Shown: in pieces, positions 34,209-52,641 of the stretch
Layout of the letters: each line of letters opens with the position of its first letter
Position numbering within the stretch: the stretch's first letter is position 1
Source: a candidate division CPR3 bacterium GWF2_35_18
GTDB lineage: Bacteria; Patescibacteriota; CPR3; GWF2-35-18
Length of the DNA: 64,000 nt
Assembly: GCA_001771135.1 (NCBI GenBank)
Contig: MESW01000006.1
Span: forward strand, 4,870 to 68,869
Direction of reading: 5' to 3'
Made by a program: the position numbers and the translations under genes
The notes under the pieces: generated by a model
The model's input: the letters and a program-made list of their open reading frames with translations, nothing else
Database searches by the model: none
What the model was told of the DNA's origin: nothing

Positions 34209-34209
34209 T

Positions 34210-34893
34210 TTATAACTCCTTAATTAAAAGTTTATATATAGTTTCAAAGCCTTTGATAAGTCCTTGTCCTTTAGACATTGAATATTTCGTATATACAGGA
34301 ACGATTATGACTTCTTGATATTTCAGCTTGTTTTTCTTCATCTCTTTCAAAATCTCCAAACTGATTTCCATATCGCGGGAAAGTAGCTTCATTTTTGATA
34401 AAGCCTCTTTTTTGTAACCGCGTAATCCGCATTGAGAATCACGAGTCGTGACTCCAGACAAAAAAGTATTTAAGATGTTTGCGACAGTCACAAATTTTTT
34501 CCGTAAAAAAGGAGTCTTATGTTTATTTGTATCTACTCGAATTCCAAGTACGACTTCACATTTTTCTTGATGAAGCCTTTGATTAACTTTTATAATATCA
34601 CTAGTGAGATGCTGACTATCAGCATCACAAGTAATCACATGTTTATAGTTGTGATCTAAAGCATATTGAAATCCAGTCCTCAAGGCCGCTCCATATCCAA
34701 GATTAACTAGGTGTCTCACATATTGAATTTTATAATTTTTGAGAACATTATTTGTCCGATCAGTACTACCATCATCAACGACAAGAATACTTCTAAAACC
34801 ACCATTTTGGAGATCTTTCACGACATCGCCAATAGTTTTCTCCTCATTAAAAGCGGGAATAATAATTAAAGTATCTTGATTCATTGTTTGCAT
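34210..34893 (-). CDS. GT2 polyprenyl-phosphate sugar synthase (DPM1/GtrB-like, e.g. dolichyl/undecaprenyl-phosphate mannose or glucose synthase)
   Basis: LIIIPAFNEEKTIGDVVKDL…ILVVDDGSTDRT…YGAALRTGF…CDADSQH. About 227 aa, typical of DPM1-like enzymes. Confidence 0.85.
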   Translation of the reverse strand: MQTMNQDTLIIIPAFNEEKTIGDVVKDLQNGGFRSILVVDDGSTDRTNNVLKNYKIQYVRHLVNLGYGAALRTGFQYALDHNYKHVITCDADSQHLTSDIIKVNQRLHQEKCEVVLGIRVDTNKHKTPFLRKKFVTVANILNTFLSGVTTRDSQCGLRGYKKEALSKMKLLSRDMEISLEILKEMKKNKLKYQEVIIVPVYTKYSMSKGQGLIKGFETIYKLLIKEL

Positions 34894-35071
34894 TTTACAT
34901 GAAAAAGTATCTTTTTGGAAAATTTAAAGCTTTAGATATGAAATCACTATTATATTTGATCGTTTCGGCTCCATCCCAAAATTCTTGACAAAATTATAAC
35001 AATACTTTAACCTATCTATAGAGTTTATCTTTAATTCAGCTATAAAATAACTAATTCAGAGGGGGGTGAGA

Positions 35072-35473
35072 ATGAACTCTATGAAAAACTTAAGTAAAAA
35101 GGCTGGTCTCATTCTTGCTCAGGTAGTTACTGTTTTTTCAATTGCAGCCACTCAAATTTATGCCGCTACTATCTCTCAACCTATTTCTTCAGCAACACTT
35201 ACCGTCGGTGGTGTTGTTAACTTAATTGTAAAAATAGTTTTTGGAGTCGGTATTTTAATTTGTGTCATCTTCCTCGTTTTCTATGGTATTAAATATATTA
35301 CCGCCGGTGATGATGTAAAAGCCATTGAAGGGGCTAGAAAAGGAATCACAGGAGCAATTATTGGTTTAATTGTTATCCTATTAACCTTTGCAATTATTAA
35401 GTTAGTTGCAACTTTCTTGGGTGTTAATGGAGGAGATATCTTTAGTATTCTTCCTGACAGCTATAGCTTCTAA
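35072..35473 (+). CDS. small secreted 'pilin-like' protein, paralog 1 (signal peptide plus two-helix hairpin with the conserved YITAGDD…K…AIIGLIV motif)
   Basis: GGGGGG RBS 5 nt upstream of the ATG. Signal peptide …AATQIYA. Mature part: hydrophobic helix (NLIVKIVFGVGILICVIFLVFYGIKYITAGDDVKAIEGARKGITGAIIGLIVILLTFAIIKLV). The topology is as in TrbC/VirB2-type pilins. Paralogous to 37292..37930 and 37940..38479. Confidence 0.5.
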   Translation: MNSMKNLSKKAGLILAQVVTVFSIAATQIYAATISQPISSATLTVGGVVNLIVKIVFGVGILICVIFLVFYGIKYITAGDDVKAIEGARKGITGAIIGLIVILLTFAIIKLVATFLGVNGGDIFSILPDSYSF

Positions 35474-35496
35474 CAAATTTTGTACTTGTCGAAAAA

Positions 35497-35527
35497 CCCC
35501 GGTCAAACCCGGGGTTTTTCTTTTTAG
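35497..35527 (+). terminator. rho-independent terminator
   Basis: AAAACCCCGGgtcaaaCCCGGGGTTTTTCTTTTT directly after the paralog-1 stop. Confidence 0.7.
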
Positions 35528-35750
35528 ACCACATTTTATACCTATACAACTCCAATTTGCAATTCAATTTGTTGTTATATGGGTTAATACTCAACTACTT
35601 TTGTTACAAATTAGAGTTAGTTGAGTATATAATAATCTTAACCTCTTTTTCTTGACGGAACTACTCTTCCCTGCTAAAACTTATTTACAGACATCACACT
35701 TCAAATCAAACCATAAAAGTTGCTAGTGATATCTTAATAGACAAACATTT

Positions 35751-37187
35751 ATGCTGAAGAAATATTTACCCTACTTTTTATTGACAATTATTGTCCTTAC
35801 TTTTTCTTTGACACTTCTGTTGAACCTACAGTATCCACGCGAAATCTGTAATGATGAGTTTTATTATGTACCAGCCGGTCAAACGATCTGGCAAACCCCA
35901 AACGAACCGAACCTTGAACATCATCCTCCTCTCGCAAAATATCTAATCGGTTTTGGAATTATGACTGTAGGAAATTATTCAATTGGTTGGAGACTGATTC
36001 CGGCTTTATTTGGAATTATCGGTTTAATCCTAGTCTTTTTTCTTACTAAAGAAGTTTTATCTCTATCAGCAAATGGAGATCGAAAGGTAACGATTTTTTT
36101 CTCCCTCTTTGCTCCATTTTTACTTGCTTTTGATTTTCTCTATTTCACGATGTCTCGACAGGCGATGCTGGATATCTTTGTTACAACATTTTTAATCGCA
36201 ACCTCTTTATTCATTTGGAAATATATTCAGACGCAACGTAAAATCTTTATTATCTTACTGGCAATATTTTTTGGTTTAGCTCTCGCTTCCAAGTGGACGA
36301 CTATTCTTTTTGCGCCTTTATTTCTATTTTTAACTCTTAAATATACTAAAACCAGAAAAATTCAAAAGAAAAGCTTTAAGATAGTGATGTTTGAATATCT
36401 GCTGATTGGATTAATTGGTGCGACTGTTTATCTTTGTACTTATATCCCCTATCTCCTAAAAAATAATGCTGGTGAATTTATGATTCTGCAAAAAGATATT
36501 TTGGTAAGAATGTTATATACAAAAGAGACAAACGGAGGAGGAACTTCACCATTTAATACAATCTTCTGGCCTTTCTTTCCTAGCAACACCCTCTCCTGCT
36601 ATTTTGACTATGAAGATAATGTTAATCCTCACAGCTTATCGATTATCAGTAATCCTCTAATAATCTGGTTCTTTTGGCCAGTTTTGATCTACAGTTTCTA
36701 TCAAGCTTTCAAGAAAAAAGAGATAAAGCGCTTTTTTATCCCGATAATTATTATTTGTCTCTATCTTCCCTGGCTTGCGGTTGAACGAGAAAAATATTTT
36801 TATTACATGACCCCTGTTATCCCTTTTTTATGTATTTTGATTGCTCAAATGGTCTTTGATTTTATTACAACAAAAGGAAAAAGTGGTTTGAACAACATAA
36901 AACCTCAAAACCCTATTTTTCTCCCAAATAAAGACCTCTTAGATAAAATCATCATCTTTCTTTATAAATTACAGGAAAAAACCCATAAAGGTAAACTCTT
37001 CCAAAAACTTTCGAAAAAAGCAGATACTCTGATTGCAAATAAATTACTAATATATATATTAGTAATTTGTTATCTACTATTAGTTATTTTATTATTCATC
37101 CTCTATTATCCTCTTTTAAATGGTTTACCCGTTTCCGAAAGCTATCGAAATACAGTTACTTTTTTTTGGCCGTTTTTATTTAAATAA
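35751..37187 (+). CDS. GT-C glycosyltransferase of the PMT/ArnT type (GT39/GT83; dolichyl/undecaprenyl-phosphate-sugar : protein or lipid transferase)
   Basis: First-loop motif DEFYYVPAGQTIWQT…LEHHPPLAKYLIGFGI (DE…HPPL.K is diagnostic of the PMT_2/ArnT families). 11 or more TM helices. Confidence 0.75.
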   Translation: MLKKYLPYFLLTIIVLTFSLTLLLNLQYPREICNDEFYYVPAGQTIWQTPNEPNLEHHPPLAKYLIGFGIMTVGNYSIGWRLIPALFGIIGLILVFFLTKEVLSLSANGDRKVTIFFSLFAPFLLAFDFLYFTMSRQAMLDIFVTTFLIATSLFIWKYIQTQRKIFIILLAIFFGLALASKWTTILFAPLFLFLTLKYTKTRKIQKKSFKIVMFEYLLIGLIGATVYLCTYIPYLLKNNAGEFMILQKDILVRMLYTKETNGGGTSPFNTIFWPFFPSNTLSCYFDYEDNVNPHSLSIISNPLIIWFFWPVLIYSFYQAFKKKEIKRFFIPIIIICLYLPWLAVEREKYFYYMTPVIPFLCILIAQMVFDFITTKGKSGLNNIKPQNPIFLPNKDLLDKIIIFLYKLQEKTHKGKLFQKLSKKADTLIANKLLIYILVICYLLLVILLFILYYPLLNGLPVSESYRNTVTFFWPFLFK

Positions 37188-37291
37188 CTTTTTAAAGAAA
37201 GATCGCATTTCCACTTGCCCCCTAATGTTTCCTATGCTAATATTCTTTTGTAAGGGAATTCCATACTTTTGAACTCAAACAAATTGAGCAT

Positions 37292-37930
37292 ATGAATAAT
37301 AAACTACCACTGAAACTCGCTGTAAATATTGTTATTACAATTGTTTCTTTATTATTCTTTTTTACCTTTATCCCTATCAACAACACTGCTTCCGCTGATG
37401 GCCCCTGTTTATGCGTTTCCGGAAAATGTGCTGGTTGTTCTGCGGCGGTAAATGATCTTGCGTGTGGACTAAATACAGATATCTGTGACAATGCGCAGAA
37501 AAGATACTCCTGTGAACATACTTTATTATACCAATCTCCTAGCAACCCAACCTTTGCCGCTCCAGGAAGATATCTTTGCAGTATCAGCTCTGATCCTGCT
37601 GATCGATATCCAACCACTTTAAATATGGCTTTAAAGGGTTCCTGGTCAGAGGTTTTCAAAACCTGCTTCTGCTCCGCCGGTCAAATGATTCAAAAGGTTA
37701 TTGATATCGCGATCTATTCGATCTCCGGTATTGCCCTAATAGTTTTAGCTTTGGGTGCGATTAAATATATTACCGCTCAAAACAATCCCGATAAAATCAT
37801 CGAGGCTAAAGACACAATTTTGGCTGGAATTGTAGGCCTTATTTTAGTTCTTTTCAGCCTAGCAATTATCAATCTTTTTCAGGGACAGCTTCCAGGTAGC
37901 TGGGGAATAAACTTTTTAAATATACCTTAA
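37292..37930 (+). CDS. small secreted 'pilin-like' protein, paralog 2, with a Cys-rich N-terminal domain
   Basis: Signal/TM MNNKLPLKLAVNIVITIVSLLFFFTFIPI. Cys-rich module DGPCLCVSGKCAGCSAAVNDLACGLNTDICDNAQKRYSCEH. C-terminal conserved IKYITAQNNPDKIIEAKDTILAGIVGLILVLFSLAII. Confidence 0.5.
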   Translation: MNNKLPLKLAVNIVITIVSLLFFFTFIPINNTASADGPCLCVSGKCAGCSAAVNDLACGLNTDICDNAQKRYSCEHTLLYQSPSNPTFAAPGRYLCSISSDPADRYPTTLNMALKGSWSEVFKTCFCSAGQMIQKVIDIAIYSISGIALIVLALGAIKYITAQNNPDKIIEAKDTILAGIVGLILVLFSLAIINLFQGQLPGSWGINFLNIP

Positions 37931-37939
37931 GCATAAAAT

Positions 37940-38479
37940 ATGAAACGTTTTACCATTAAAATCACTAAAATAATCTTAATGCTTTCATTACTCATTATTC
38001 CTCTGAGTAGCATTCTACAAAATCCGACACTGGCTGCCTGTACCTGTATAAATGATTTATGTGTTGCTGGAGCAGCCGGAGATTGTATCGCTTCTCGTGC
38101 TGGTGCTCCTTGTAAATATGACAATGACTGTTCAGTTCTTTCTGATGTTAACTGTACTGCTTGCAGTATTATTACCTTTGTTTTTAAAGTTATTCTTCCT
38201 TGGACTTTTGGTATTGGAATTTTAGCCGCGGTTGTTTTTCTAGTCATTGGCGGTATCCGTTACATAACAGCCGGTGATGATCCCAAAAAAATATCTGATG
38301 CTAAAGGGACTGTTACCTGGGCGGTAATCGGACTTGTCATTCTCATTATAGCCGGATCGATTGTTCGTCTTATATGGTTATTCTTTGGATTTGAAGAAGG
38401 AAAAATATTCTTAATCCCCACGACAACTGCTGACATACCAGGTCAGGAACCTGTCTTAGATTGTATCTTGTGTGAATAA
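37940..38479 (+). CDS. small secreted 'pilin-like' protein, paralog 3, with a Cys-rich N-terminal domain
   Basis: Signal peptide …NPTLA. Cys-rich module ACTCINDLCVAGAAGDCIASRAGAPCKYDNDCSVLSDVNCTAC. C-terminal conserved IRYITAGDDPKKISDAKGTVTWAVIGLVILIIAGSIV. Ends in a CILCE tail. Confidence 0.5.
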   Translation: MKRFTIKITKIILMLSLLIIPLSSILQNPTLAACTCINDLCVAGAAGDCIASRAGAPCKYDNDCSVLSDVNCTACSIITFVFKVILPWTFGIGILAAVVFLVIGGIRYITAGDDPKKISDAKGTVTWAVIGLVILIIAGSIVRLIWLFFGFEEGKIFLIPTTTADIPGQEPVLDCILCE

Positions 38480-38584
38480 AGAATTTTAGAAAAATTGACA
38501 ATTAAAAACTGAAAATCTTAAAATATATATCAACCGGTTTAAAAATCTGCTTATTTTTAGATTTTTAAAGAAAAGGCCTTAATA

Positions 38585-41500
38585 ATGAAGAAAAAACTGC
38601 TTAAATTATTTCCATTCTTAGTCATTATTGCGACATTCCTTTCCCTATCGCAACCACTTTTTTCACCGGCTTTAATTGAGGCCAATCCTCCTGCAGATGT
38701 TTTTACCGGTCAAATTATCCCCGCTTTTATAGGTAACGAATATGATCCCTCTGTTGCTTTTCAGGAATTAGCCGGCTCGACAGTCTATGTTTTTGCGTAT
38801 GACAACTGGGAAGCAGCCTCTGATAGAATTGTTGTGGGAAATAAAGCAATTAAAACTCAGATAAGGGCTGATGGTTCTTTCCAGGTGATGGGACTTCCAC
38901 ATGCTTCTTATTATGGAGTATATTTTCCTTACGACCAATATGGTCCTTATGAACCACGAAATGGTAGTGGTACAGAATATTCTTATAGCTGTTCCTTTCC
39001 TTCCCCTCCACTGGGATCATGTGACGCCATTTGGGGAGGAAATGCCCCTGTTTATCCTATCCCTGGATTGGATGATTACTGCTGTGTTCCTCCGACTCGA
39101 GTAGCAAATACGATCAAAAATACTCCTTTCCGTGCTCCAGAACCAGATGATAATATTATCGATGTCTTTTCTTATGCTCAAGCTATATATAATGGAACCT
39201 CTCTTATTCCTACCCAAATAGCCGATGAATTTATCAAACCTGAAGGCAAGGCAATCTTCGTTACTTCAAATAATAAACTCGATATTGAAAACCATATCAA
39301 TGTTTTTCCCGTAGTTCCAACCTCAGTTTTAAAAATAAAAATTGATACTGAACAGTATGGAAATAGTATCGAAAATAGTGATAGAAGTCAGCTAAAACTT
39401 GGTTATGCAATCGCACACCGTCCGGTTTCAGTGACTGCAACTAGGATAGGATATTACCGTATTGAAATGTGTACTAATATCTTTGGGATACCCTGGGATT
39501 GTGGAATCGATTATGGTACAAAATATCTACCAATTGGTGGCCCAGCAATTACGGGAAGAACTGATGAAAATGGAAACTTTAAAGCCTATGCTCCTTCAGG
39601 ATATTATCATATTAAATATGTCTTTGAAGATGGAACTGAGAATATGGCTTTTCGAGAGATTGATGCCTTGGGAGAAAATCCTGAACCAGCCGACTCTAAT
39701 TTTGGAGTAACTACGGCTCTTTTAAAATCATTGTCTCAATGGAAAACTGATCCTACTGATACCTATATAGAAGACAAGCCTCAAAACGTAATAGACCCTC
39801 CTCTATACAAAGTTTATCGTAAAGGAGTAAGTATTTGGGGTTCAGTTACTAGACCATTTGTAGTTAAAGATAATAACCGCAGTCAATTCAATATACCAGT
39901 CTCTACGTTTTATACGGGAAATGATGGCTCTGATACAGGAGGACAAAGCAATACAATGCCAGATTTAGCGGTCTATACAGAAACGAACTATTCCGCGATT
40001 GATTTGGGAGTAGAGGTAAAACAAGATTTTGAAGCTGTAAATATGTTTAATAACTCCGGAGTTATTTCAGCAGACCATGATGATAACTATTGTGTAACGA
40101 ATAAAAATGCTTGTAACTTTTCCACTGTCAATAAATATGGGATTTTTTATATGCGTACCTCAGAAGCATATTCTTTTATTAATGGTAAAATAAGATTAGC
40201 CGGTTATAACTCAGCAACGAATGAAGTCTTTTTAGACAGTCTACCCCTCTATCCTGATGTTGGCAGTACTGATTATATTGAACCCCAACCACAAGCCCTA
40301 CAAGGATTAATAAGTGGACCAAATAGTTCATATAGTTATAACTTTTCCACAAAAAAACATGATAATAGAGGTATTTACGCAACTGTAAGAGATAATAGAG
40401 GACTGGCTGTACCTGGAGCTCAAGTTACTATTGCTCCTAATGAACCCGATCTAAAAAGCAGTAGTGTCGCTCAAACACAAGGAATTAGTTTATTAACTGA
40501 TGCTGATGGATCAGTGTATCTTTCTCCTCACGTCTTCTCTGAAAACGCAGAATTAATGACAGATTCGGCAACCTGTAACGGTTCTGATGATAGTGTTGCT
40601 GAAAATGGATATACCTTAATAGCTTCTCAAGGAGATACCTTTAAAGCTTCTCTTGATCTTACCAAAGATCAGATTTGTGATTCTATTGACGCGCAACAAT
40701 CTGTTGAAATTGCCAGTATTAAGGGAAAAAATGTCTACACTAACGAACCAGGAATGATTCAATTAGCCAAAGCATTACAGACAGATAATATTTTTACGGT
40801 AAGCGCCGCGGAAACCGAATCTGCTTGCCAAATATATAAACAAGATAGTAGGACGGTCGCTCCCTATGTCCCAAATGATCCAGTGGCAAACGAACAAGAA
40901 TGTGTGAATCTTTATGGATATTTTCTTTGTACACCAGACCCATTTGTTACGATACAAGGAGAATTTTTTGGCGGTGTTTCCGAAAATGTGATAGTTTTGG
41001 CTGCAGGTGATGCTTCTGGAAGCTATCGATCGACAGAAATTATTAAAGAAGAAGTTATTCCTAATCCGGAAACAACTCTTCATTCATCATCTGGATTTGG
41101 TGGTTTCTATGATACTACTAATAAAAAATTATATATTCACATTCCCTGCGCCTGGAAATCAGCTCAACTGAAAATAGAGGCTGGTGAGGAAAAAACAGAT
41201 AACTCTCAAGGAGATGTTGAACTTACAGTTATCGAACAGATCCGAGTTTATCTCATTCAATTCGGTGCAAATTTAGCCAAAGGTTTTGCTGGCGCAAGAG
41301 ATGCAGTTGACATTGGTGGGAGCTTTGATTACGACGAAGCTGTTGAAGAGATTGATGAAGTAGCAGAATCAGGTATCGACTCAATCATAAATAAAGGCCT
41401 TTCTGAGCGTCATTTTATAAAAGGTGATGCCCGAAAAGATGAAATGCAAGTCGCTATCTCAGAAACAAACGTTAGTGGTACACCCCCCAGCTATACCATA

Positions 41501-43654
41501 AATCCTCCTGCGGCCACATTCTTTTTGAAACCAGCTTGTCATGTTTTTGATTTGTTAAATTATCAAACTTGGGGTAATTTTGCTTGCAATCTCATTGAAG
41601 GTATGGGGAAATTTTTACAAGGCAGCATGGAATTTTTAGAAGATACTATTCTTCATACAAAGCCGATTTCAGAGCTATCCACAATTACTACATTATGGAA
41701 TCTTTCTCGTAATATTAGTAATGGAATAATTATTATTTTGGTTTTAATCTTTGCGGTTATGTATATGTTCCGAATGGATTCCAAAGATCTTCCTCTAAAA
41801 GAGCTTCCAATGAAAATTGTGAAGGCAGTGATCTTAATTAATCTCTCTCTCCTCTTCTGTCAGCTATTTATTGATATTTCTAATGTAGCTACAAGATCAA
41901 TATTCCTGATGGTTCAGAATGCTTTTTCACCTACTGGACAGACAGCTGTAATTAACTTTGCTTCTTTTGCAGCGATTATCACGACAATAGCTCTTTCGGC
42001 TGGAGCCTCAGGAGTGACAGCAGGCGTCGGTATAGCAACTGCAGTGGTTGCTTCTGGTGGAACAGCTTTAGTCGCTATAGGTATTGGAGTCATTGTTGCT
42101 GTCCTTGCCTTCTTTATGGCAATTATTACCTTAGCTGTAATTATTTTAATTCAATTTGTTGTTCGTTTAATGGTCATCTATCTTTGTGTTATTCTCGCTC
42201 CGCTTCGATTCCTTATGGGAATACTCCCTCAAGGCGAAAGTTTTGTAAAAATTTGGGATACAACCTTTTATAGTTTTGTTTTTATGCAGGTATTAGCGGC
42301 ATTATTTCTCAATGTCGGAATTGCTCTCATGTCTAATATCCCTAGTGGAGCTGGTTTAGAAATTGTTATTTCTCAATTGGCCGTAGGAGTAGCAATCTTT
42401 ATGGTGGCCTTGAAGTCTCCAAGCTTAATCCTACAACTTCTTGGTGGTGGTGGAATGGCTGGAAAATTAGCTGGTGGAGCTGGTGAGACTCTTACTGAAT
42501 GGAGACAGGGACAACAAGAAAAAATGGGTGCTGAAGCAGTTGCAGGTCGCGCAGGAGAATTCAAAGCTGAATCTCAAATGCATGGCGGTGGAGTAAGAGG
42601 CTTTGGAAAAGCGACCCTTTCCAGAGTGCCTATAATTTCAACTTACACAAAAGCAAAAAATGCGAACACTCAAGCTCAAGCAAATAGACTGTTCACAATG
42701 AAAAGAAACCAAGATATTCAGAAAGAAGGACAAGGATCAGTTCTAGCTCAAGGAACAAAAGGTCAAAGTGGAGATCTAACTCATATAGAACAAACCGAAG
42801 GCGGTAATGGTGTTTTACGATCGGTCAATGCTTGGGGTAGCGGTAGAAATGATCTATCTGCAGAAATTGATACCAACAGAAGTCCTACTGCTAATCAGTA
42901 TGTTCAAGATCATAATAGAGATATTGAGAATGATCAAGAGGTCAAAGATATTGACCAACAAGCAAATACTGAACAAACACAACAAATTGAAGCTATCATT
43001 AGACCTGATGTTGAAACTCAGGTAAATAATGAAATTAATGCTTCAAGCCCGACTTTAAGTCTTGATGATGCTTCTGTGACTCAAGCAGCCCAAAGTAGAA
43101 TTAACATGGGTGGAGCGGCTGGAAAGACGATTGATCAAGTGAAAGAAGACGTTAGAAGAGAAAGAACTGCAGCTAGAGCCCCAATGATGGCAGCCAAGAT
43201 GAAAGAACAACCTCGAATTGATCAAGCAATGGCAAGTCATCAAGCTGAAATCCAAAAGATTAAAGATGAAGCAAATAAAAAGAAAATGGAAGCACGCAAG
43301 AAAAAAGGTTATATCGTTACTGATCCTAATACTGGGACTGCTAAAGTCAATGGACAACAATTACTAGAGATTGCGGAACAAGAACTTAAAAATGATCCAA
43401 AACTGAAAAAAGAAGTTGAAAGACAGATAAAAGCGGCTGGACTAGCAAAGACTGTTAACGCAAAAGCTCTACACGCTGCAAAACTTGCTGAAGGAACTGA
43501 AGGTGGAGTAGAGGTTGGAACTCGACAACAAAGAAATATACAAAATCGCCGAAGACAAGCTGGAGCTGGACAAAGAGTCAATTATGCCGCCGCTGGAATG
43601 AATTATCGAACAGGAGATCTCTCTGGGCTTAATGAACCGGAAGAAAATATCTAA
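38585..43654 (+). CDS. giant (1689 aa) envelope protein: secreted N-terminal domain of about 1080 aa plus a C-terminal polytopic Gly/Ala-rich TM region (VirB6/TrbL-like) and a charged, Q-rich cytoplasmic tail
   Basis: Signal peptide MKKKLLKLFPFLVIIATFLSLSQPLFSPALIEA. About 7 TM helices between residues 1075 and 1360 (e.g. IIIILVLIFAVMYMF; ALSAGASGVTAGVGIATAVVASGGTALVAIGIGVIVAVLAFFMAIITLAVIILIQFVV; FYSFVFMQVLAALFLNVGIALMS). Then LLGGGGMAGKLAGGAGE and about 330 aa of K/E/Q-rich tail. No nucleotide-binding motif. Confidence 0.5.
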   Translation: MKKKLLKLFPFLVIIATFLSLSQPLFSPALIEANPPADVFTGQIIPAFIGNEYDPSVAFQELAGSTVYVFAYDNWEAASDRIVVGNKAIKTQIRADGSFQVMGLPHASYYGVYFPYDQYGPYEPRNGSGTEYSYSCSFPSPPLGSCDAIWGGNAPVYPIPGLDDYCCVPPTRVANTIKNTPFRAPEPDDNIIDVFSYAQAIYNGTSLIPTQIADEFIKPEGKAIFVTSNNKLDIENHINVFPVVPTSVLKIKIDTEQYGNSIENSDRSQLKLGYAIAHRPVSVTATRIGYYRIEMCTNIFGIPWDCGIDYGTKYLPIGGPAITGRTDENGNFKAYAPSGYYHIKYVFEDGTENMAFREIDALGENPEPADSNFGVTTALLKSLSQWKTDPTDTYIEDKPQNVIDPPLYKVYRKGVSIWGSVTRPFVVKDNNRSQFNIPVSTFYTGNDGSDTGGQSNTMPDLAVYTETNYSAIDLGVEVKQDFEAVNMFNNSGVISADHDDNYCVTNKNACNFSTVNKYGIFYMRTSEAYSFINGKIRLAGYNSATNEVFLDSLPLYPDVGSTDYIEPQPQALQGLISGPNSSYSYNFSTKKHDNRGIYATVRDNRGLAVPGAQVTIAPNEPDLKSSSVAQTQGISLLTDADGSVYLSPHVFSENAELMTDSATCNGSDDSVAENGYTLIASQGDTFKASLDLTKDQICDSIDAQQSVEIASIKGKNVYTNEPGMIQLAKALQTDNIFTVSAAETESACQIYKQDSRTVAPYVPNDPVANEQECVNLYGYFLCTPDPFVTIQGEFFGGVSENVIVLAAGDASGSYRSTEIIKEEVIPNPETTLHSSSGFGGFYDTTNKKLYIHIPCAWKSAQLKIEAGEEKTDNSQGDVELTVIEQIRVYLIQFGANLAKGFAGARDAVDIGGSFDYDEAVEEIDEVAESGIDSIINKGLSERHFIKGDARKDEMQVAISETNVSGTPPSYTINPPAATFFLKPACHVFDLLNYQTWGNFACNLIEGMGKFLQGSMEFLEDTILHTKPISELSTITTLWNLSRNISNGIIIILVLIFAVMYMFRMDSKDLPLKELPMKIVKAVILINLSLLFCQLFIDISNVATRSIFLMVQNAFSPTGQTAVINFASFAAIITTIALSAGASGVTAGVGIATAVVASGGTALVAIGIGVIVAVLAFFMAIITLAVIILIQFVVRLMVIYLCVILAPLRFLMGILPQGESFVKIWDTTFYSFVFMQVLAALFLNVGIALMSNIPSGAGLEIVISQLAVGVAIFMVALKSPSLILQLLGGGGMAGKLAGGAGETLTEWRQGQQEKMGAEAVAGRAGEFKAESQMHGGGVRGFGKATLSRVPIISTYTKAKNANTQAQANRLFTMKRNQDIQKEGQGSVLAQGTKGQSGDLTHIEQTEGGNGVLRSVNAWGSGRNDLSAEIDTNRSPTANQYVQDHNRDIENDQEVKDIDQQANTEQTQQIEAIIRPDVETQVNNEINASSPTLSLDDASVTQAAQSRINMGGAAGKTIDQVKEDVRRERTAARAPMMAAKMKEQPRIDQAMASHQAEIQKIKDEANKKKMEARKKKGYIVTDPNTGTAKVNGQQLLEIAEQELKNDPKLKKEVERQIKAAGLAKTVNAKALHAAKLAEGTEGGVEVGTRQQRNIQNRRRQAGAGQRVNYAAAGMNYRTGDLSGLNEPEENI

Positions 43655-43675
43655 ACGTTTTTAAAAGATTGTTTC

Positions 43676-43722
43676 TGAGCCGGCTTAAAATTATAAATTT
43701 TAAGCCGGCTCTTCTTTTTCCA
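43676..43722 (+). terminator. rho-independent terminator
   Basis: GAGCCGGCTTAAAATTataaATTTTAAGCCGGCTC followed by TTCTTTTT. Confidence 0.6.
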
Positions 43723-43837
43723 AACTCGAATAATTCCCTTCCAACATTTTGTTGATTTTGCTATTTAAAGGCTATTTATTGTATAATTTAAAGAGTTTTT
43801 AGATACATTAAGCTATAAACTATATGAAAGGAACAAC

Positions 43838-45406: not shown

Positions 45407-45543
45407 AGCAAACAAGTTTCATATTTGAAAACAGTTTTCTTAATCCTGTCTATTCTGTGTTTTGCTATTTCTCTTTTATTTCTTTCTAATTTCTTGTAGA
45501 ATAATTACTGGAAGTTAGTTAATCTTCTTATTAATCCAAAATT

Positions 45544-48500
45544 ATGAAAGTGCCTTCAAAAAGGTTAAAAAAACTCATTTCACTAGGTTTGAATATCTTA
45601 CTTACTCTTTCTTTAATATTACAATCAAGCCCAGCTTTCACCACTCCAGTAAATGCTTATGACCCATTTTCATTAACTCCGGAAAAGCTAGGAATTTTTA
45701 AAGGTTTACCCGATAAATTCAAAGGGTTTTTTGATTCCGCTTCCCAAAAATTAAATGGTTTATTCAAAACGCCATCTGGAACTACAGGTGGAGCATCTGA
45801 AGGCTCACCCGCTCAACCACTTCCAGACGAAGAACACCCTATTATCCCAATCTCAGCTGATTTAATTCAAGTAGATGCTACATGGAGTGCTAGCTGTGTT
45901 CCCGATATGCCTCCTGATGAATATTTAGCATCTGGTGGTGGAGGTGGAACCTGTTATATGACTCCATATGAACCTCCGGTACCACAAAAACCAATTGAAG
46001 ATAATGGAAGTTGTGCTGAAATAAACATAATTTCTGATCGTAGTTGTGTCATTGCTCCGGGACGAAGTGTGAATTTTGTAGTTGAAATTGTCAACAATTG
46101 TGACACCACTTTTACAATTTTGAGTATTTTTGATGACCATAAAGGTCTTGTGAATATTAAAGAAACAAAAACTGTGGGTCCTGGAGAAAAAATCACCACT
46201 CTTCCCTACGATATTGTGGTTAAAGAACCACTTATAAATACCGTAACTTTAACAGCTCAATTTAGCGATTATAATCCTTTTATTATCGAAAAAATAGGGA
46301 CACTGATTACTATTGACCCTTTGGGTTGCCAGATTCATCCCGTTTGTTTAGCCCTTTCATATGAAGCTGAACCAACCTGTGTAGAAAATTCTGGCGATCC
46401 TTCTAATTTCATCGCTAGAATTAACAATAATTGCACAAATCAAATAACCAGCACCCAACTGATAACCTCTTTTAACACTCAGAATCTTGGAACTTTAGTT
46501 GCTGGGGAAACTGTTATTGAACTCGGAGAAAAAAATATCACTTCAAATATAACAGAAACGGCTAATTTAACAGCCATCATGGATACTTATTTTATTAATG
46601 TAACAGACACAGCAACTGTTTCCTTATCTCCTTTCCCTGTAGGATGTGTGACAAATCCACCTAGTACTTGTATTTCTTTTCACGAAGTTGCTATTCCTTC
46701 TTGTGTTGAAAACTCTGGAGAACAATCAACTTTTACCATTTCAGTAACAAATAACTGTACTGAGAATTTCACAATTAGCAGTATTACGGATACTTTGGCT
46801 CCTGGAGGAACAATAGATATCACAGGACACGAATCTGTCCCGGTTTCAGGAAGTCAGTCATTTAGTTACAATTTAACAATTAACAATCCTGTTTCTGGAA
46901 CTGCTAACCTGACCGGAGTTTTGGCTTCTGGAACAACAATAACAGCAACAACAACTTCTGGTGTCTCCGTTGGAAACTGTATATCCTTAAATGAATTAAA
47001 TCTTCCTCTTGGACTTCATAGTTTAAATAAAAATACAAACATTTCTAATCTAATATCTAAAATAAAAGATTTTATCCCAAATGCTGTAAATCATATTAAA
47101 GAAATCTTCACTCCAGACAATGTTACTGCAGCTACCCCAATTTGTGATACCTGTCAAACAGAGAATTACGGTTGGGATGAAAATCCTCCTGCCGGTTTTG
47201 ATGACGAATATAATGATTATTATCAAATTGAACCTGGCATTTGTATGGTCGAATGCAACCCCATGTCTGATCCTTTTGAAAGTGACTCCTGTCCGGATCC
47301 ATATCAATGTCCTGAAAGAGTAGCCTCCTATACCAATTATGGCAATTGTGATGAAGAGGTTAAGACTTGTACTGTACCAATACTGGGAACGCAATTTGAT
47401 GCTTGTTGGGGATTGTATCCTCCTGCTGCTCATACCCCTTATGATTATACTGATCCCGATGCCTCATGTACGCTAGACGACTTACCCACAACAACGCCAA
47501 CTGGTGAAACTGTTGGTGGAGACCCACAAATATATGAAGTTTTCTCGCAAAATATCACTCAATATAACTACGAAGAGTGTAATAGACATGACAGCATAAG
47601 TAAATATAATCGAGCCTGTGCCCCACAATATTCATATACCAAAGCAGATATGCCCACCTGCTATCCAACAGATCTGGGAACAAGCTATGGAGCAACTGCT
47701 CGCAAATTAAATGGTTGTAATGAACTCATTGAACCTACTGAACTTGATGATGGAACACTTGTTGGTGTTTCTCCACCCCAAAGTCCTAACAAAGCGGACG
47801 CATACGATTGTAGTGAAAAAACATGTAACGCTACAGACGGACCACGTTGTGTGCAGGGAACTGAAGCAGTCTGTCGAAAAGCAATTGAAATTAAAACCTG
47901 TGAACAGCTTATCACTACAACTTCTGAACCTCCTGCTGATAATTGGGGGGAAAACTGCGTTGTCCAAGCACTTCCAGCACAAGAGATAACTTGTGGAAAT
48001 GCAGAAGGTTGTCCTGCTGATGGCGGATCAGAATACGGATGTAGTGTTGAAAATATCTGTACTCAAGACGTAAGTTATTGGGATGGAAATTCAGAAGATC
48101 ATGATTGTGATGATGACGGAAGTGCTGATTGTTGTTCAGAATGTGAGTTTGAAGGAGGAGTTGAAGTTTGTAATGATAATCCAGGAAATAATGATTGTGG
48201 TGGAAGCTGTTGTAATTGTGATGATGGGTACGAGGGTTGTTTAAATTTTGATACCAGTAGTAATCCTGAATCAATCCCTCCTACTCCAGACGCATGCAGT
48301 GGTGGAAATTGTTCCTGCGAAGAAGGTTCTAGTGCGGGAGAATGTGCTAACGCTGATAACACTCTTTGCGCTGATAATGGAGAAACTGGCTGTGCTGATT
48401 TGGAAGATTGTTGTAAGCTCAAAGAACATTGGGAGTGGCCAATAACTTCTGATGCACTTGACTGTGCTATCTATCAATATACTGAAAGACATATGATGTA

Positions 48501-50610
48501 TCGCGTTCTTTATTATAGCAATATGATTACAATTCCCATTCGCGTCAGAAATGTAAGTGATCATGTAATTAAAGAACCCGTAACAATGACAGTAGACCTT
48601 CCTGATTTTCTTGATCTGTATGATGTTAATCCCTATCCTGAAGATTATGTGGGAACTCCTGAAGAGGATCCTGAAAATAATTGGGTGGCGGTGGAAGCTG
48701 AACTCCCAGGAATTCCTGATTTAATTAATTATATGGCTACACTACATATGAACTGGACAGATGGAACATCCGGAATTGCGAATGGTCCTCATGGAGGAAC
48801 AATCACTTGGACTTTTTGGAATGAAGATGTAGAAGTTGGTTTACCTATCGGGGCTGATTATACTTTTACTCTAAGAGTGGTTCCTGCCGACAAAAACAGT
48901 GCTGGTCTATCCTTTTATGGAAATCACCGTATTTCATATAACGGAACGCAAGACTCTGAACTCAACCACTACATAAATAATTTATATTCTGATAACCGCT
49001 TGATAAATCTAGAGTACAAAACACAGTGGTCTGATTCTGAAGTTGTAGAGCTTCAATCTTTTAGAATTGGAAGCGATGTTGTCTCTAAAGCTTCTCCTGG
49101 ATGTGGAGGTTACGATGAAGATGGTAATCCTCTTACAGACGGTTGTTCTGTAGATCCAAACTCTCGACCTTTTGGCTGGCCAGTCACTGGAACTATTGCT
49201 CAAGATTGGGGTGGTATTGAAGACTATAACACTGATTCTGATATCACCTGGAGTAATCCTTTAGCTGAAGAATGGGGTCCCAGATACGGAGAAGGTGAAA
49301 AATATCAGATTTGTGAGAATGAAAGTAATGAATACTGGTCACACCAAGGAATAGATCTTGTTCCGATTGAAGGAGAAGCCTCTGAAACTGAGATTTATTC
49401 TACTCATGCTGGAAATGTAGTAGCAGCTGAATGTTTTGAAGATGAGAGAGGTTGCAGTGTCACGGTAAGCTCAAATGTTGATGATGATTGTTGGCCGGAA
49501 TTTGTGACTACATATAATAATTTAATTCCTGAACTACTAAGAGTTTTACCCAATGAATATGTTCCCCGACATAAATTGTTGGGTCTCATGGGAGCAACGG
49601 GTAAAGGAGCTGGTGGAACTGATTATACTGGATTTACCCATACTAACTATCAAATCCGTTATCCAGTCACTGAAAAGCTAGACCTCAATAATGATAATTG
49701 TCCGGCTTATCCCCCACCTTTAGACGCAGATAATCCTGATGGGTATAATACACCAGCAACTTATTTTCCAATTGAACAGGACAACTGTCATGGATACGAG
49801 GATAATCCGGAAGATCCGGAATATGTTGACCCTATTACAAATGACTTTTACAACCTCAGAAAACCAGAAGAAGATTCTGCAGATCTAAGCAAAGACGAAG
49901 AATACGAATGTAACCTCGACCCATACATATGTGAAACCCCATTTCCTAATCGCGCCTATTCTACCTGTCAATGTGTCACTGAAGATTGTGATGTAGAAAT
50001 GATCGATTATCCTCCATACTTCTTTTGCGAAAATAAACGTCAGGATCAAGATGTTAGTAGCTGTTACTATGATAATCCTACTGGATTCCAAAAAGACTTT
50101 GGCGGTAATAGTATCCCTATGAGTTGTCCTATTCAAGAACCAGAACCATTCTGTCTTGGAATATGGAGTAGTGTAAATGTTCCGTTCAGCCATGCTGGTT
50201 TTGACTGGATAACCCATGCAGGACCGACAGTTGGAACTGAAGTTTTTTCTGTAGTTGATGGTGAAGTAATTATTAGTGGCTGTAATGACGGTTACGGAAA
50301 TATGGTTCTTATCACTGATGGTACTTATGATTATTATTACGGACATTTAGCTCCTGGTACCAATGTCGCGATGGGACCAATATCCTCGGGAACGCTAGTG
50401 GGAGCAATAGGAATGACACCTACATGCGCTGGAGAACATTCCACAGGGCCTCATCTCCACTTTGAAGTGAGAACTGCAGGAGCACACTGTGGTTATGCCA
50501 ATCCAGCCTGTACCATCGATCCCATCTCAATTGGTATTTGCGGCCCCTCGCTTGGTGCTGGTGAATATTCTGGAGTCGCTGAACATTGCGATAACTGTAG
50601 TTGTGAATAA
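45544..50610 (+). CDS. giant (1688 aa) secreted protein: three tandem Cys-bounded Ig-like repeats, a Cys-rich central region and two C-terminal M23/LytM peptidase domains
   Basis: Signal peptide …SSPAFTTPVNA. Three repeats of about 95 aa (C.E.N..S.R/D…I.V.NNC…F.I.SI.D…GC) at residues about 157-480. The central region (about 800-960) carries over 40 Cys (…CDDDGSADCCSECEFEGGVEVCNDNPGNNDCGGSCCNCDDGYEGC…). First M23-like module HQGIDLV…THAGNVV…LGLMGATGKG…THTNYQIRY (about 1290-1390). Second, with full motifs: HAGFDW…GTEVFSVVDGEVI…GYGNMVLITDG…YYYGHL…GPHLHFEV (about 1550-1640). Confidence 0.7.
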   Translation: MKVPSKRLKKLISLGLNILLTLSLILQSSPAFTTPVNAYDPFSLTPEKLGIFKGLPDKFKGFFDSASQKLNGLFKTPSGTTGGASEGSPAQPLPDEEHPIIPISADLIQVDATWSASCVPDMPPDEYLASGGGGGTCYMTPYEPPVPQKPIEDNGSCAEINIISDRSCVIAPGRSVNFVVEIVNNCDTTFTILSIFDDHKGLVNIKETKTVGPGEKITTLPYDIVVKEPLINTVTLTAQFSDYNPFIIEKIGTLITIDPLGCQIHPVCLALSYEAEPTCVENSGDPSNFIARINNNCTNQITSTQLITSFNTQNLGTLVAGETVIELGEKNITSNITETANLTAIMDTYFINVTDTATVSLSPFPVGCVTNPPSTCISFHEVAIPSCVENSGEQSTFTISVTNNCTENFTISSITDTLAPGGTIDITGHESVPVSGSQSFSYNLTINNPVSGTANLTGVLASGTTITATTTSGVSVGNCISLNELNLPLGLHSLNKNTNISNLISKIKDFIPNAVNHIKEIFTPDNVTAATPICDTCQTENYGWDENPPAGFDDEYNDYYQIEPGICMVECNPMSDPFESDSCPDPYQCPERVASYTNYGNCDEEVKTCTVPILGTQFDACWGLYPPAAHTPYDYTDPDASCTLDDLPTTTPTGETVGGDPQIYEVFSQNITQYNYEECNRHDSISKYNRACAPQYSYTKADMPTCYPTDLGTSYGATARKLNGCNELIEPTELDDGTLVGVSPPQSPNKADAYDCSEKTCNATDGPRCVQGTEAVCRKAIEIKTCEQLITTTSEPPADNWGENCVVQALPAQEITCGNAEGCPADGGSEYGCSVENICTQDVSYWDGNSEDHDCDDDGSADCCSECEFEGGVEVCNDNPGNNDCGGSCCNCDDGYEGCLNFDTSSNPESIPPTPDACSGGNCSCEEGSSAGECANADNTLCADNGETGCADLEDCCKLKEHWEWPITSDALDCAIYQYTERHMMYRVLYYSNMITIPIRVRNVSDHVIKEPVTMTVDLPDFLDLYDVNPYPEDYVGTPEEDPENNWVAVEAELPGIPDLINYMATLHMNWTDGTSGIANGPHGGTITWTFWNEDVEVGLPIGADYTFTLRVVPADKNSAGLSFYGNHRISYNGTQDSELNHYINNLYSDNRLINLEYKTQWSDSEVVELQSFRIGSDVVSKASPGCGGYDEDGNPLTDGCSVDPNSRPFGWPVTGTIAQDWGGIEDYNTDSDITWSNPLAEEWGPRYGEGEKYQICENESNEYWSHQGIDLVPIEGEASETEIYSTHAGNVVAAECFEDERGCSVTVSSNVDDDCWPEFVTTYNNLIPELLRVLPNEYVPRHKLLGLMGATGKGAGGTDYTGFTHTNYQIRYPVTEKLDLNNDNCPAYPPPLDADNPDGYNTPATYFPIEQDNCHGYEDNPEDPEYVDPITNDFYNLRKPEEDSADLSKDEEYECNLDPYICETPFPNRAYSTCQCVTEDCDVEMIDYPPYFFCENKRQDQDVSSCYYDNPTGFQKDFGGNSIPMSCPIQEPEPFCLGIWSSVNVPFSHAGFDWITHAGPTVGTEVFSVVDGEVIISGCNDGYGNMVLITDGTYDYYYGHLAPGTNVAMGPISSGTLVGAIGMTPTCAGEHSTGPHLHFEVRTAGAHCGYANPACTIDPISIGICGPSLGAGEYSGVAEHCDNCSCE

Positions 50611-50619
50611 ATCTAAAAT

Positions 50620-51744
50620 ATGAAAAGCATTTTAAATAAAATTAAATTAAATATCTCCAAATTAAAAGATAAACTCCAAGAATCTAAGCTGTTACACAAA
50701 TGGGAAGAAAACCTTTCCGATAAGGGAAAACAAATATGTAAGTATATAAAAACCCATCCAAAACAATCTTTAGTGGTGGCTTCGGTAATAGTTATAATAA
50801 TAACAATTGGAGTATATCTGGTTTCCATACTCATAAAACCAAAACCGATTACTACAACCCCCCACCCTTTTACCGAAGTTACGACCTATAAATTAAATTC
50901 CGTTCCGACCAAAATAGAATATGGTAAATTTAATTCGGAATTAAGAGAGTTTCCTTCTAATATCTCTATCTATCAAACAAAAGAAAAGCCTTTATCAGGA
51001 TTACAAGAAATCGGTAATTTACAAAGGATTCTTCAAACCTTAGGATTTACTTCTGATGCCCGAAATTATTCTAACAAAAAAGCGATTGCCTATTATGAAA
51101 AAGGTAAATCTCTAACAGTAACGTTGATCGGCGATAAAATATCTTTCAGTACAGGATTGAATGTCGAACCAGAGCTTCTACAACAAACAAACGACATTCG
51201 TTCGCTATCTGATTTACTCCAAACTGGAAAATATTTTTTTAGTGAAAATGGGTTAAATTTCGAGATACAATTTTCTGATCCAAAAACCGTATACAGTAGA
51301 ATGGGAGAGCTTGGTCTTTATGAAATTAACAATGTTGAACAGGCGGATGTTGTAACCTATATTTTACAGCCGCAAATTGAATCTTTAAATATTGCTAATA
51401 ACCAATTTCTGCCTTATATAAGCTTGACAAAAAATGGCAAAATTGTCGCCTTTTCTATTTTTAACAAAAAAATCGTTGCGGCTACTAAAAATCCGGTGAT
51501 AAGTATAAGTAAGCTGAAAAAATCGATCCAAAATAATGAAGCTGTCTCTTTAAGTAAAATTGAAACCAAATATCTAGAGCCTCAAAGTATTGTGATAAAA
51601 AGTACTCAAGTTCTTTACTATTATAATGAGGCACAGGAAGTTTTAACGCCTGTTGTTACTCTGCAAGTAACCCTTAAAAAAGATGGTGAAGAAAAAGAAG
51701 CTACGCTATATCTACCCGCTTTTGAAAACAAATATTACTATTAA
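50620..51744 (+). CDS. hypothetical single-pass membrane protein (374 aa)
   Basis: N-terminal cytoplasmic region of about 45 aa, one TM helix (LVVASVIVIIITIGVYLVSILI), then an extracytoplasmic beta-rich domain. No recognisable motif. Confidence 0.4.
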   Translation: MKSILNKIKLNISKLKDKLQESKLLHKWEENLSDKGKQICKYIKTHPKQSLVVASVIVIIITIGVYLVSILIKPKPITTTPHPFTEVTTYKLNSVPTKIEYGKFNSELREFPSNISIYQTKEKPLSGLQEIGNLQRILQTLGFTSDARNYSNKKAIAYYEKGKSLTVTLIGDKISFSTGLNVEPELLQQTNDIRSLSDLLQTGKYFFSENGLNFEIQFSDPKTVYSRMGELGLYEINNVEQADVVTYILQPQIESLNIANNQFLPYISLTKNGKIVAFSIFNKKIVAATKNPVISISKLKKSIQNNEAVSLSKIETKYLEPQSIVIKSTQVLYYYNEAQEVLTPVVTLQVTLKKDGEEKEATLYLPAFENKYYY

Positions 51745-51747
51745 ATT

Positions 51748-52641
51748 ATGAAGATAAAATTATTTAGCTTAAAATTAATCCTTATTGCTACTCTACCATT
51801 GATATTTTCGTATTCTACCCCAACGATTGCCGATGAGGAAAAAATTCTTTACTGTGAATTTATTCATTCTCCTTCTCAAGATGGTTTTATCAGAAGTGGC
51901 GGGCCTATTAATACTGATAGTGGTGCCCGTTATAGACCTTTAGCTATTCGTGACCCTGATTGTACAGATATTGTTAGAGATATCTCCTTCTATCCCGGAG
52001 AGTATAATCTTCCCCATTCTGAACCTGGAGGATTTATTCCTGGTGGACCAGGAGGAAGTTGGAATGATTGTACTGCATGTAATCCTGATCCTGCTTCTGT
52101 AGTTGCCGAACCATGGGTTGAGGCAAAATTTATCGATCTTGCAACACGTTGGTTTGGAGGAGTAGGAACTCCCAGAATAGATATGTATGATGAAGTTGTT
52201 GCTGCCGCAGAAGCGGCGGGAATGGATCCTATTTTTGCCATATCTATTTGGCTTCATGAATCTGGAGCAAGCAATTATGAGGGAATTTGTAGAGTATTAG
52301 GTCATGAAGATCCTAATTCTGGATATTGTACGCGTATTCAAGACTTTGGGGTAAATCTAGAATCAATCACAACTAAAATTGAAGCTCCGGGAGTATATCC
52401 TGACAATGTTACCGAAGATCATTTTGAAGAACAGCTCTCTCACTATGTAGATTTACCAGCATGGTATCTTACTATGTGTGACGTAAACGCAGTTTCTTGT
52501 CCTATGGAAGTATTTGGCTCGATGTTTAGATGGGGAGGTTGTCCACCTGAGACTGTAGACACATATAGCGTTGGAATCCAAGAAATATATGAAGGATTCT
52601 TTCAAGCAGGAGCATTCCCTTGCTATCCTATTAATCTTTAA
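51748..52641 (+). CDS. secreted protein with a lysozyme-like / Rpf-type transglycosylase-like segment
   Basis: Signal peptide. AISIWLHESGASNYEGICRVLGHEDPNSGYC…QDFG resembles the catalytic E-S-G…N…G region of Rpf/SLT-type transglycosylases. Several conserved Cys. Weak assignment. Confidence 0.3.
   Translation: MKIKLFSLKLILIATLPLIFSYSTPTIADEEKILYCEFIHSPSQDGFIRSGGPINTDSGARYRPLAIRDPDCTDIVRDISFYPGEYNLPHSEPGGFIPGGPGGSWNDCTACNPDPASVVAEPWVEAKFIDLATRWFGGVGTPRIDMYDEVVAAAEAAGMDPIFAISIWLHESGASNYEGICRVLGHEDPNSGYCTRIQDFGVNLESITTKIEAPGVYPDNVTEDHFEEQLSHYVDLPAWYLTMCDVNAVSCPMEVFGSMFRWGGCPPETVDTYSVGIQEIYEGFFQAGAFPCYPINL

Follow-up and report, generated by a model that had tools for sequence, protein, structure and literature searches.

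Few machines have been shown to be indispensable to Patescibacteria living as epibionts, and type IV secretion systems (T4SSs) are one of these. Wang et al. 2023 (PMC10633639) found that Southlakia epibionticum ML1 requires nearly every gene of a T4SS cluster close to its origin (SEML1_0006-0019) in order to grow as an epibiont. Encoded there, besides six pilins of the PF18895 family, are VirB4, PrgI, a peptidase of 1113 aa, a TrbL/VirB6-like protein of 1088 aa, and lysozyme-like and NTF2-like proteins; the vicinity has no recognisable coupling protein or relaxase (PMC10633639). Here we describe a block of nine genes (35066–52641, plus strand; g1 to g9 in order) in a 64-kb stretch of DNA, hereafter the window, from the candidate division CPR3 bacterium GWF2_35_18. 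The locus is another example of the known Patescibacteria T4SS, which it matches in parts list, near-dnaA position and relaxase absence, and its local peculiarities are variations on a known theme, not a new kind of system. The block itself likely supplies the pilus, the channel and the hydrolases of a T4SS of the Patescibacteria type (monoderm and MPF-FATA-derived), working with a nearby VirB4 module. The resemblance to a Gram-positive-type T4SS noted in the initial annotation of this DNA is borne out, in that the locus has pilins of the VirB2 kind, a channel protein resembling VirB6, and hydrolases that act on the wall.

According to Quiñonero-Coronel et al. 2025 (PMC12102498), the VirB4 proteins of Patescibacteria form a clade within the monoderm MPF-FATA class, and ∼80% of the 3,035 genomes surveyed encode a member. 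The associated gene clusters, defined by a neighbourhood of ±20 coding sequences (CDS), are close to dnaA, dnaN, rnpA and rpmH; their VirB2-like arrays comprise 2–11 genes and are sometimes split by a non-pilin gene (PMC12102498). M23-containing hydrolases are present, and relaxases occur in 103 of the 3,035 genomes (PMC12102498). VirB6 is scarce or absent in some classes, which the authors attribute to sequence divergence, and the main text of the survey makes no mention of glycosyltransferases or extended VirB6 proteins (PMC12102498). A 2025 review treats the Patescibacteria systems as a new superfamily branch and defines the "extended VirB6" proteins (PMC12857230).

Held in common by the Southlakia and CPR3 loci are a PF18895 array, an extended VirB6-like protein (a probable VirB6 in CPR3), VirB4, PrgI/VirB3, a peptidase protein of >1000 aa, a lysozyme-like protein (a candidate in CPR3) and origin proximity. 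They differ in that the CPR3 genes form two divergent modules either side of dnaA, 12 kb apart; that there are three pilins in CPR3 rather than six; that the CPR3 array houses a GT-C glycosyltransferase; and that the VirB6-like protein is longer in CPR3 (1689 versus 1088 aa), with an N-terminal ectodomain that is conserved. The peptidase carries an M23 pair in CPR3 and an M15B/Hedgehog-type domain in Southlakia, and CPR3 has a PepSY/YycI-like protein where Southlakia has its NTF2-like (VirB8-like) protein. With the Patescibacteria clade as surveyed, the CPR3 locus shares VirB4 together with TrsD-like and PrgI proteins, an interrupted array, the vicinity of dnaA, dnaN, rnpA and rpmH, an M23 hydrolase, and no visible relaxase. 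Compared to monoderm conjugative T4SSs, the CPR3 locus has pilins, and no DNA-processing genes are seen. To our knowledge, the monoderm conjugative systems (MPF-FATA: Prg of pCF10, Tra of pIP501, Con/CwlT of ICEBs1 and Orf14-17 of Tn916) have no VirB2 pilin. Those systems encode a relaxase and a type IV coupling protein (T4CP), reside on mobile elements and have adhesins such as PrgB.

The coordinates of the open reading frames (ORFs) give nine genes, all on the plus strand, where eight co-directional ones had been counted initially. Their products are 135 (g1), 478 (g2), 212 (g3), 179 (g4), 1689 (g5), 522 (g6), 1688 (g7), 374 (g8) and 297 aa (g9) in length. Because at least 18 contigs in public databases have identical gene calls, we regard the ORFs as real rather than chance, and orthologs in the same order in relatives lend further support. 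Intergenic spacing is tight between g3 and g4 (9 nt), g7 and g8 (9 nt) and g8 and g9 (3 nt), and wider gaps lie 3′ of g1, g5 and g6. Two strong terminator-like hairpins are found on the plus strand, one directly 3′ of g1 (35491–35520; 12-bp stem with 7 GC pairs, T-run) and one 3′ of g5 (43677–43711; 16-pair stem, then a T-run). Sites resembling promoters or terminators are no more numerous across the region than expected by chance, and hence a terminator role for these hairpins is suggested by their position alone.

The source bacterium comes from metagenomes of Rifle aquifer groundwater, and the closest named proteins belong to CPR3 bacteria GW2011_GWE2_35_7 and GWF2_35_18. This provenance fits the earlier guess of a reduced-genome organism that lives on a host. 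For comparison, we used 16 loci recovered by an N-terminal-domain scan, one genome per species, and two closer loci (L028 and L029) recovered by protein identity. The block proved to be kept in CPR3 and WWE3 relatives.

The VirB4 module and the origin region

The initial annotation reported no ATPase, relaxase or coupling protein, and this is true of the 64-kb window. It went on to propose an ATPase-less, undescribed surface system, which finds no support in what lies beyond the right end. An 86.5-kb contig in ENA that carries g5 extends past this end, and the corresponding locus (L006) matches window positions 52898–64000 with 0 mismatches in 11,103 nt. On the extension, genes for VirB4, a TraC/TrsD-like protein and a PrgI/VirB3-like protein are encoded in succession on the minus strand. 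VirB4 (619 aa; window-equivalent 64595–66454) scores 100.9 bits against P-loop_TraG, also matches AAA_10 and DUF87, and aligns to the solved VirB4 ATPase domain (PDB 4AG5) with an E value of 2.6e-50. Its Walker A (AKSGGGKS) and Walker B (ILIVDEAW) motifs are both intact. The TraC/TrsD-like protein (224 aa; 66494–67168) carries a precomputed PF26593 annotation, and a separate Pfam search gave no match. The PrgI/VirB3-like protein (572 aa; 67178–68896, L006 14281–15999) scores 34.8 bits against PrgI, above the cut-off of 27. This last protein is unusually long and has a CarboxypepD_reg-like β-sandwich near its C-terminus (30.6 bits, cut-off 32.3).

The virB4 gene starts just 595 nt outside the window, so the apparent lack of an ATPase is a window-boundary effect. 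This locus overturns no current view of T4SSs; its chief practical message is the edge effect behind "no ATPase". The gene lies ∼12 kb from the end of g9, across dnaA, with 17 genes between the last pilin gene and virB4, a distance that falls inside the ±20 CDS neighbourhood used to define these systems (PMC12102498).

The intervening landmarks place the locus beside the replication origin region. The dnaA gene (59512–60855, minus strand) scores 235.8 bits against Bac_DnaA, and past it lie rpmH, rnpA, yidD, yidC, jag and dnaN, all on the plus strand, the window ending within dnaN (5′ part, 63414–64000). GC content drops to 0.24 at 58–60 kb of the window. The layout of this origin region is unusual, with dnaA divergent from rpmH-rnpA-yidD-yidC-jag, and dnaN placed after jag rather than after dnaA.

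If the block were an autonomous surface-filament or adhesion system, it would work without a T4SS ATPase. The absence of any such ATPase from the window is what this idea would predict, as is the fact that none of the 16 more distant loci has a VirB4 gene within 10 kb of its pilin and VirB6 genes. Against it stand the VirB4, TraC-like and PrgI genes 12 kb off on the same contig, and the same parts are contiguous with VirB4 in Saccharibacteria. Moreover, VirB2-type pilins and VirB6 are not known to work without VirB4 (PMC12857230). We give the autonomous system almost no credence.

A second alternative derives the block from an integrated conjugative element (ICE), as its remnant or its cargo; the T4SS would then be one for DNA conjugation whose relaxase and coupling protein have been lost from view. 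The nesting of the Patescibacteria VirB4 lineage in the conjugative MPF-FATA class speaks for such an origin, and the pilins show sub-threshold matches to NCBIfam NF045849, a Mycoplasma ICE pilin-like conjugal transfer protein. A Streptomyces conjugative plasmid also has a comparable set, namely TrbL, a DD-metalloendopeptidase and a T4CP. Yet we found no relaxase, T4CP, integrase or repeat boundaries in ∼73 kb (the window plus a 9.4-kb extension; ORFs of at least 120 aa). The surroundings, beside dnaA, are of housekeeping and envelope character, and the same flanks (SpoIID, DUF6541, GT2, DUF2304) recur in two other species. The rarity of relaxases among Patescibacteria genomes points the same way, and we consider an ICE remnant highly improbable. 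As no relaxase or coupling protein is visible, the VirB4-driven machine that we favour is more likely to serve host contact and to pass on proteins or other molecules than to mediate conjugation, as proposed for Saccharibacteria.

Pilins, glycosyltransferase and an extended VirB6-like protein

Profile searches with the nine proteins against Pfam, NCBIfam and PHROGs matched the pilins, the glycosyltransferase and the M23 protein and returned nothing for the 1689-, 522-, 374- and 297-aa proteins. All three of the small paralogs described initially as pilin-like exceed the Pfam gathering score (26.6 bits) of PF18895 (T4SS_pilin, VirB2-like), so the accompanying remark that none of the products belongs to a nameable family is wrong for these. 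Pilin A (g1, 35066–35473, plus strand) scores 32.5 bits, pilin B (g3, 37292–37930, plus strand) 27.5 bits and pilin C (g4, 37940–38479, plus strand) 44.5 bits, and Pfam also gives weak TrbC/VirB2 matches for each. In every case a signal peptide is followed by two hydrophobic helices linked by a short charged loop, which is the topology of VirB2. Pilin B has a Cys-rich insert of ∼100 aa between signal peptide and pilin core; pilin C, in which the Cys-rich insert is shorter, also has a Cys pair at its C-terminal end. No further pilin genes are found within the window.

The cores of the three paralogs are 33–43% identical to each other, and related genomes have a distinct ortholog for every one of them. 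Pilin A is 84% identical to its L028 counterpart, compared to only 47% for the VirB6-like g5 in the same genome. Pilin B is 51% identical to its L028 ortholog and has an ortholog in L029 as well, with a one-to-one correspondence and a retained Cys pattern; pilin C is 64% identical, with its Cys-rich insert kept. Because each paralog has its own ortholog and pilin A is the most conserved, the data suggest one major pilin (pilin A being the candidate) and two specialised subunits rather than freely varying copies. Orthology of this kind points to division of labour, not antigenic variation.

We also considered pilins of the type IV pilus (T4P) or type II secretion system kind. T4P pilins have a class III prepilin leader and a single N-terminal hydrophobic helix and depend on a PilB-type ATPase. 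The small proteins of the block combine a Sec-type signal with a two-helix hairpin, and their family matches are to PF18895/TrbC rather than to T4P pilins; this candidate was rejected. Neither PilB nor PilT is encoded in the window.

The glycosyltransferase interleaved with the pilins, as recognised in the initial annotation, is a GT-C membrane enzyme of the PMT_2/ArnT-like kind (g2, 35751–37187, plus strand; PMT_2 46.3 bits, PMT 35 bits). Its position between pilin genes is common to two other species, those of L028 (60% identity) and L029. Conservation inside the pilin array points to pilin glycosylation, and from its gene position we predict that the enzyme probably O-glycosylates the pilins or Ser/Thr-rich ectodomains. 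In L028, an ORF for a 91-aa GIY-YIG nuclease (6535–6810, plus strand), absent from the window, separates the first of the pilin genes from that of the glycosyltransferase.

Immediately downstream of the pilins is the gene for g5 (38585–43654, plus strand), which starts with a signal or anchor and continues with a ∼1000-aa ectodomain, a polytopic module and a charged tail of ∼400 aa. It had been described as a VirB6-like polytopic protein with an extracellular domain of about 1080 aa; the VirB6 likeness is supported indirectly, via relatives, while the ectodomain is nearer 1000 aa and is accompanied by the tail. A database search found 22 homologs of 980–1740 aa from CPR3, WWE3 and related metagenome-assembled genomes. 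The family has two conserved modules, at residues 39–350 and ∼1000–1330, and a variable middle. The N-terminal ectodomain module (residues 39–350; 38699–39634, plus strand) has no Pfam or PDB match by sequence or profile. Within its first 92 residues, 21 columns are invariant in 18 homologs, with motifs that include VFTGQIIPAF, RTQIRADGSFQ and YGVYFPF. The ectodomain gives weak CarboxypepD_reg-like matches, as the PrgI/VirB3-like protein does near its C-terminus, and the tail (42455–43651, plus strand) is K/R/E/Q-rich and without a family match, long tails being present also in homologs P0002 and P0003.

The VirB6/TrbL-like part is the polytopic module with its hydrophobic segments (residues ∼1040–1290; 41702–42454, plus strand). 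In homolog P0007, the membrane module scores 28.6 bits against Pfam TrbL, above the cut-off of 25.9. That of homolog P0003 scores 19.7 bits, below the same cut-off, and covers model positions 2–210 of 215; P0003 is 33% identical to g5 over 93% of its length, and 48% identical in the membrane module. Both homologs carry precomputed PF19590 and/or PF04610 annotations. Searching plasmids with the TrbL-positive module by tblastn gave marginal matches alone (E values of 0.06–0.6). By transitive homology and context, g5 is a probable divergent extended VirB6.

Extended VirB6 proteins (e.g. of Rickettsiales, PMC12857230) and g5 have in common a polytopic VirB6 core (a probable one in g5) fused to large hydrophilic domains. 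The described members have these domains in a central or C-proximal position, whereas the largest domain of g5 is N-terminal and extracytoplasmic, and the ∼400-aa tail is C-terminal. The g5 family, with its large conserved ectodomain, is missed by direct profile search, which may be compared with the scarcity of VirB6 in the survey (PMC12102498). Where standard profiles fail, such a divergent extended VirB6 can be recognised by its conserved N-terminal ectodomain and its position after the pilins.

Conservation of the block and its hydrolase end

Among the 18 relative loci, each one with enough upstream DNA has 1–6 PF18895-like genes immediately 5′ of the VirB6-like gene. The order in L028 (pilin, the GIY-YIG ORF, GT-C, pilin, pilin, VirB6-like, a 520-aa protein, giant M23 protein, g8-like) reproduces that of the window in every gene, the GIY-YIG ORF aside. 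At L012 and L021, two distant loci, the genes next after the VirB6-like one encode an M23 protein of 720–760 aa and then a g8-like protein, and a smaller M23 protein is also encoded 3′ of the VirB6-like gene in L022. As this order is common to L028 and the distant L012 and L021, we take the conserved core to be the pilins, the extended VirB6, the M23 protein and the g8-like protein.

Upstream of the pilins (26774–34893, minus strand) lie genes for SpoIID, a tandem pair of DUF6541 paralogs (641 and 544 aa; 33% identity), a methyltransferase, GT2 enzymes and DUF2304. Since this envelope and glycan set recurs upstream of the pilins, much of it in L028 and part in L029, synteny reaches beyond the T4SS block.

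Between the VirB6-like gene and the hydrolase genes stands g6 (43838–45406, plus strand), a lineage-specific, soluble, charged protein with no transmembrane segment. It has no match in Pfam, NCBIfam, PHROGs or PDB, and a database homolog search returned the identical sequence only. A positional ortholog in L028 is 27% identical, and the more distant loci have none. By these sequence comparisons, g6 is an orphan, predicted cytoplasmic protein that is fast-evolving and confined to CPR3.

The giant secreted, wall-associated protein g7 (45544–50610, plus strand) matches Peptidase_M23 over two stretches (69.5 bits). From the N-terminus it comprises a signal peptide, three repeats of ∼110 aa, an acidic Cys-rich core, and a degenerate and then a canonical M23 domain, with no membrane segment other than the signal peptide. 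The protein has 82 Cys residues in total. Its repeats are visible through their Cys motif only (C.EN..F..NNC, at residues 157, 279 and 387), and a BLAST self-comparison detected no internal repeats. The L028 ortholog is 69% identical.

Both of the M23 domains seen in the initial annotation were found, the first one weak. This first domain (residues ∼1267–1356; 49342–49611, plus strand) scores 20.3 bits, below the cut-off. It keeps HQGID, and has YNNL in place of YxHL and HTN in place of HxH, so that the second His is lost. The same motif loss is seen in the L028 ortholog, and HxH is lost entirely in L012. The C-terminal domain (residues 1561–1647; 50224–50484, plus strand) scores 55–69 bits and has the HxxxD and HxH zinc/catalytic motifs of the family, in the form of HAGFD, YGHL and HLH. 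Because the second His of HxH is missing here and HxH is gone in L012, the M23 domain conserved beside VirB6 is probably non-catalytic, in keeping with what is known of the LytM family.

A second surface-protein cluster in this genome includes, inside the window, a 432-aa protein without matches (1109–2407, minus strand) and, past the left end (L009 11309–15100), an M23 peptidase of 519 aa, a 191-aa protein and one of the Big_5/Laminin_G_3 kind. Comparison of this cluster with g7 gave no detectable similarity.

The next gene encodes g8 (50620–51744, plus strand), a bitopic membrane protein with a YycI/YycH/YpeB-like (tandem PepSY-like) ectodomain. An identity as VirB8/TcpC/PrgL was rejected on fold grounds, the ectodomain being YycI/YpeB-like and not NTF2-like. 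Together, the degenerate M23 domain and the PepSY-like protein make a conserved pair next to VirB6 and a testable lead. The block closes with g9 (51748–52641, plus strand), a secreted protein that we tentatively regard as lysozyme-like and as a candidate wall hydrolase of the lysozyme or lytic-transglycosylase kind (a VirB1 analogue). Foldseek with a model of g9 was not significant, and a Pfam search with the whole g9 family found no match. PDB sequence searches with g6, g8 and g9 gave no meaningful matches.

The hydrolase genes g7–g9 could instead be a separate module for remodelling the cell's own wall or attacking a host's, with no more than proximity linking it to the T4SS genes. The genome has M23 proteins in plenty, another being encoded just left of the window, and the PepSY/YycI/YpeB fold is known from wall-hydrolase regulators, not from T4SSs. 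The terminator-like hairpin and promoter-like sites between the VirB6-like gene and those downstream would also suit a separate unit. The gene order argues otherwise, in that an M23 gene and then a g8-like gene lie directly 3′ of the VirB6-like gene in L012, L021 and L028. In Southlakia, the peptidase and lysozyme-like protein adjoining VirB4 are essential along with the T4SS, and a dedicated wall hydrolase is normal in monoderm T4SSs. We therefore think it unlikely that g7–g9 are independent of the T4SS.

Weighing the assignment, and other features of the window

Several observations weigh against reading the block as part of a VirB4-driven T4SS. First, VirB4 is split from the block by 12 housekeeping and polysaccharide genes and is encoded on the opposite strand, so that any co-regulation of virB4 and the block is conjectural; the lack of a VirB4 gene close to the distant pilin and VirB6 genes, noted above, is of the same kind. 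Second, g5 itself, membrane module included, has no Pfam TrbL match. Alignment of the g5 family profile to TrbL of the Streptomyces conjugative plasmid by hhalign gave an E value of 3.8e-4, which speaks for the assignment, but at a probability of only 36%, and PDB searches with the membrane-module family profile or the P0007 module reached no solved VirB6. It is on this account that VirB6 membership of g5 rests on transitive homology. Third, no VirB8-like protein was found in the locus, g8 resembling YycI/YpeB. Finally, pilus formation, glycosylation, the substrate and the hydrolase target are predictions from sequence in the CPR3 lineage, whereas Southlakia has functional data. The locus adds a well-resolved example from the little-studied CPR3 lineage.

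By analogy with other T4SSs, VirB4, the TraC/TrsD-like protein and PrgI, which are encoded ∼12 kb away, would energise assembly at the membrane. There, g5 could form the membrane platform or channel, and its ∼1000-aa ectodomain may traverse the wall, substituting for the outer core that monoderm systems lack. Pilin A would polymerise on this platform as the main VirB2-like pilus subunit, and pilins B and C may be minor or tip subunits whose Cys-rich N-terminal inserts face outward, as conservation and the known architecture of VirB2 pili suggest. The predicted O-glycosylation by GT-C would probably act on these subunits or on the Ser/Thr-rich ectodomains. The giant M23 protein and lysozyme-like g9 might open peptidoglycan, either of the cell's own wall for assembly or of the host's at the contact site, and g8, encoded directly after the M23 gene, could be a partner or regulator of the M23 protein.

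A bolder version of this scheme, which we hold to be doubtful, is that the CPR3/WWE3 T4SS may have been remodelled into a wall-spanning, host-engaging device. In such a device, the VirB6 ectodomain would replace the outer core; the pilus would be glycosylated, with one conserved pilin as its major subunit and two Cys-rich pilins at the tip or as minor components; and the giant protein with degenerate and active M23 domains, restrained by the PepSY-like protein, would breach the peptidoglycan of the host and not that of the cell itself. If true, this would make it a defined structural variant of the T4SS superfamily with new subunit classes.

Elsewhere in the window, a polysaccharide locus occupies the space between the T4SS block and dnaA. 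It comprises a 1035-aa fusion (53440–56547, minus strand) of an N-terminal NAD-dependent sugar epimerase/dehydratase to DUF4012 (residues 631–768), followed by Wzz-like, PEMT-like and Wzy_C (O-antigen ligase-like) proteins. To the left, a 1006-aa protein (14723–17743, minus strand) has a GGDEF domain at residues 546–643 (51 bits), with the remainder lacking annotation. A ComFC-like protein (19386–20069, minus strand), with a double zinc ribbon and a phosphoribosyltransferase domain, points to natural-competence machinery. Lastly, a 272-aa protein (20925–21743, minus strand) with a Shedu SduA C-terminal nuclease domain (32 bits versus a cut-off of 27) is a candidate for anti-phage defence in a reduced CPR genome; its gene adjoins one for a response-regulator receiver protein (20446–20838).

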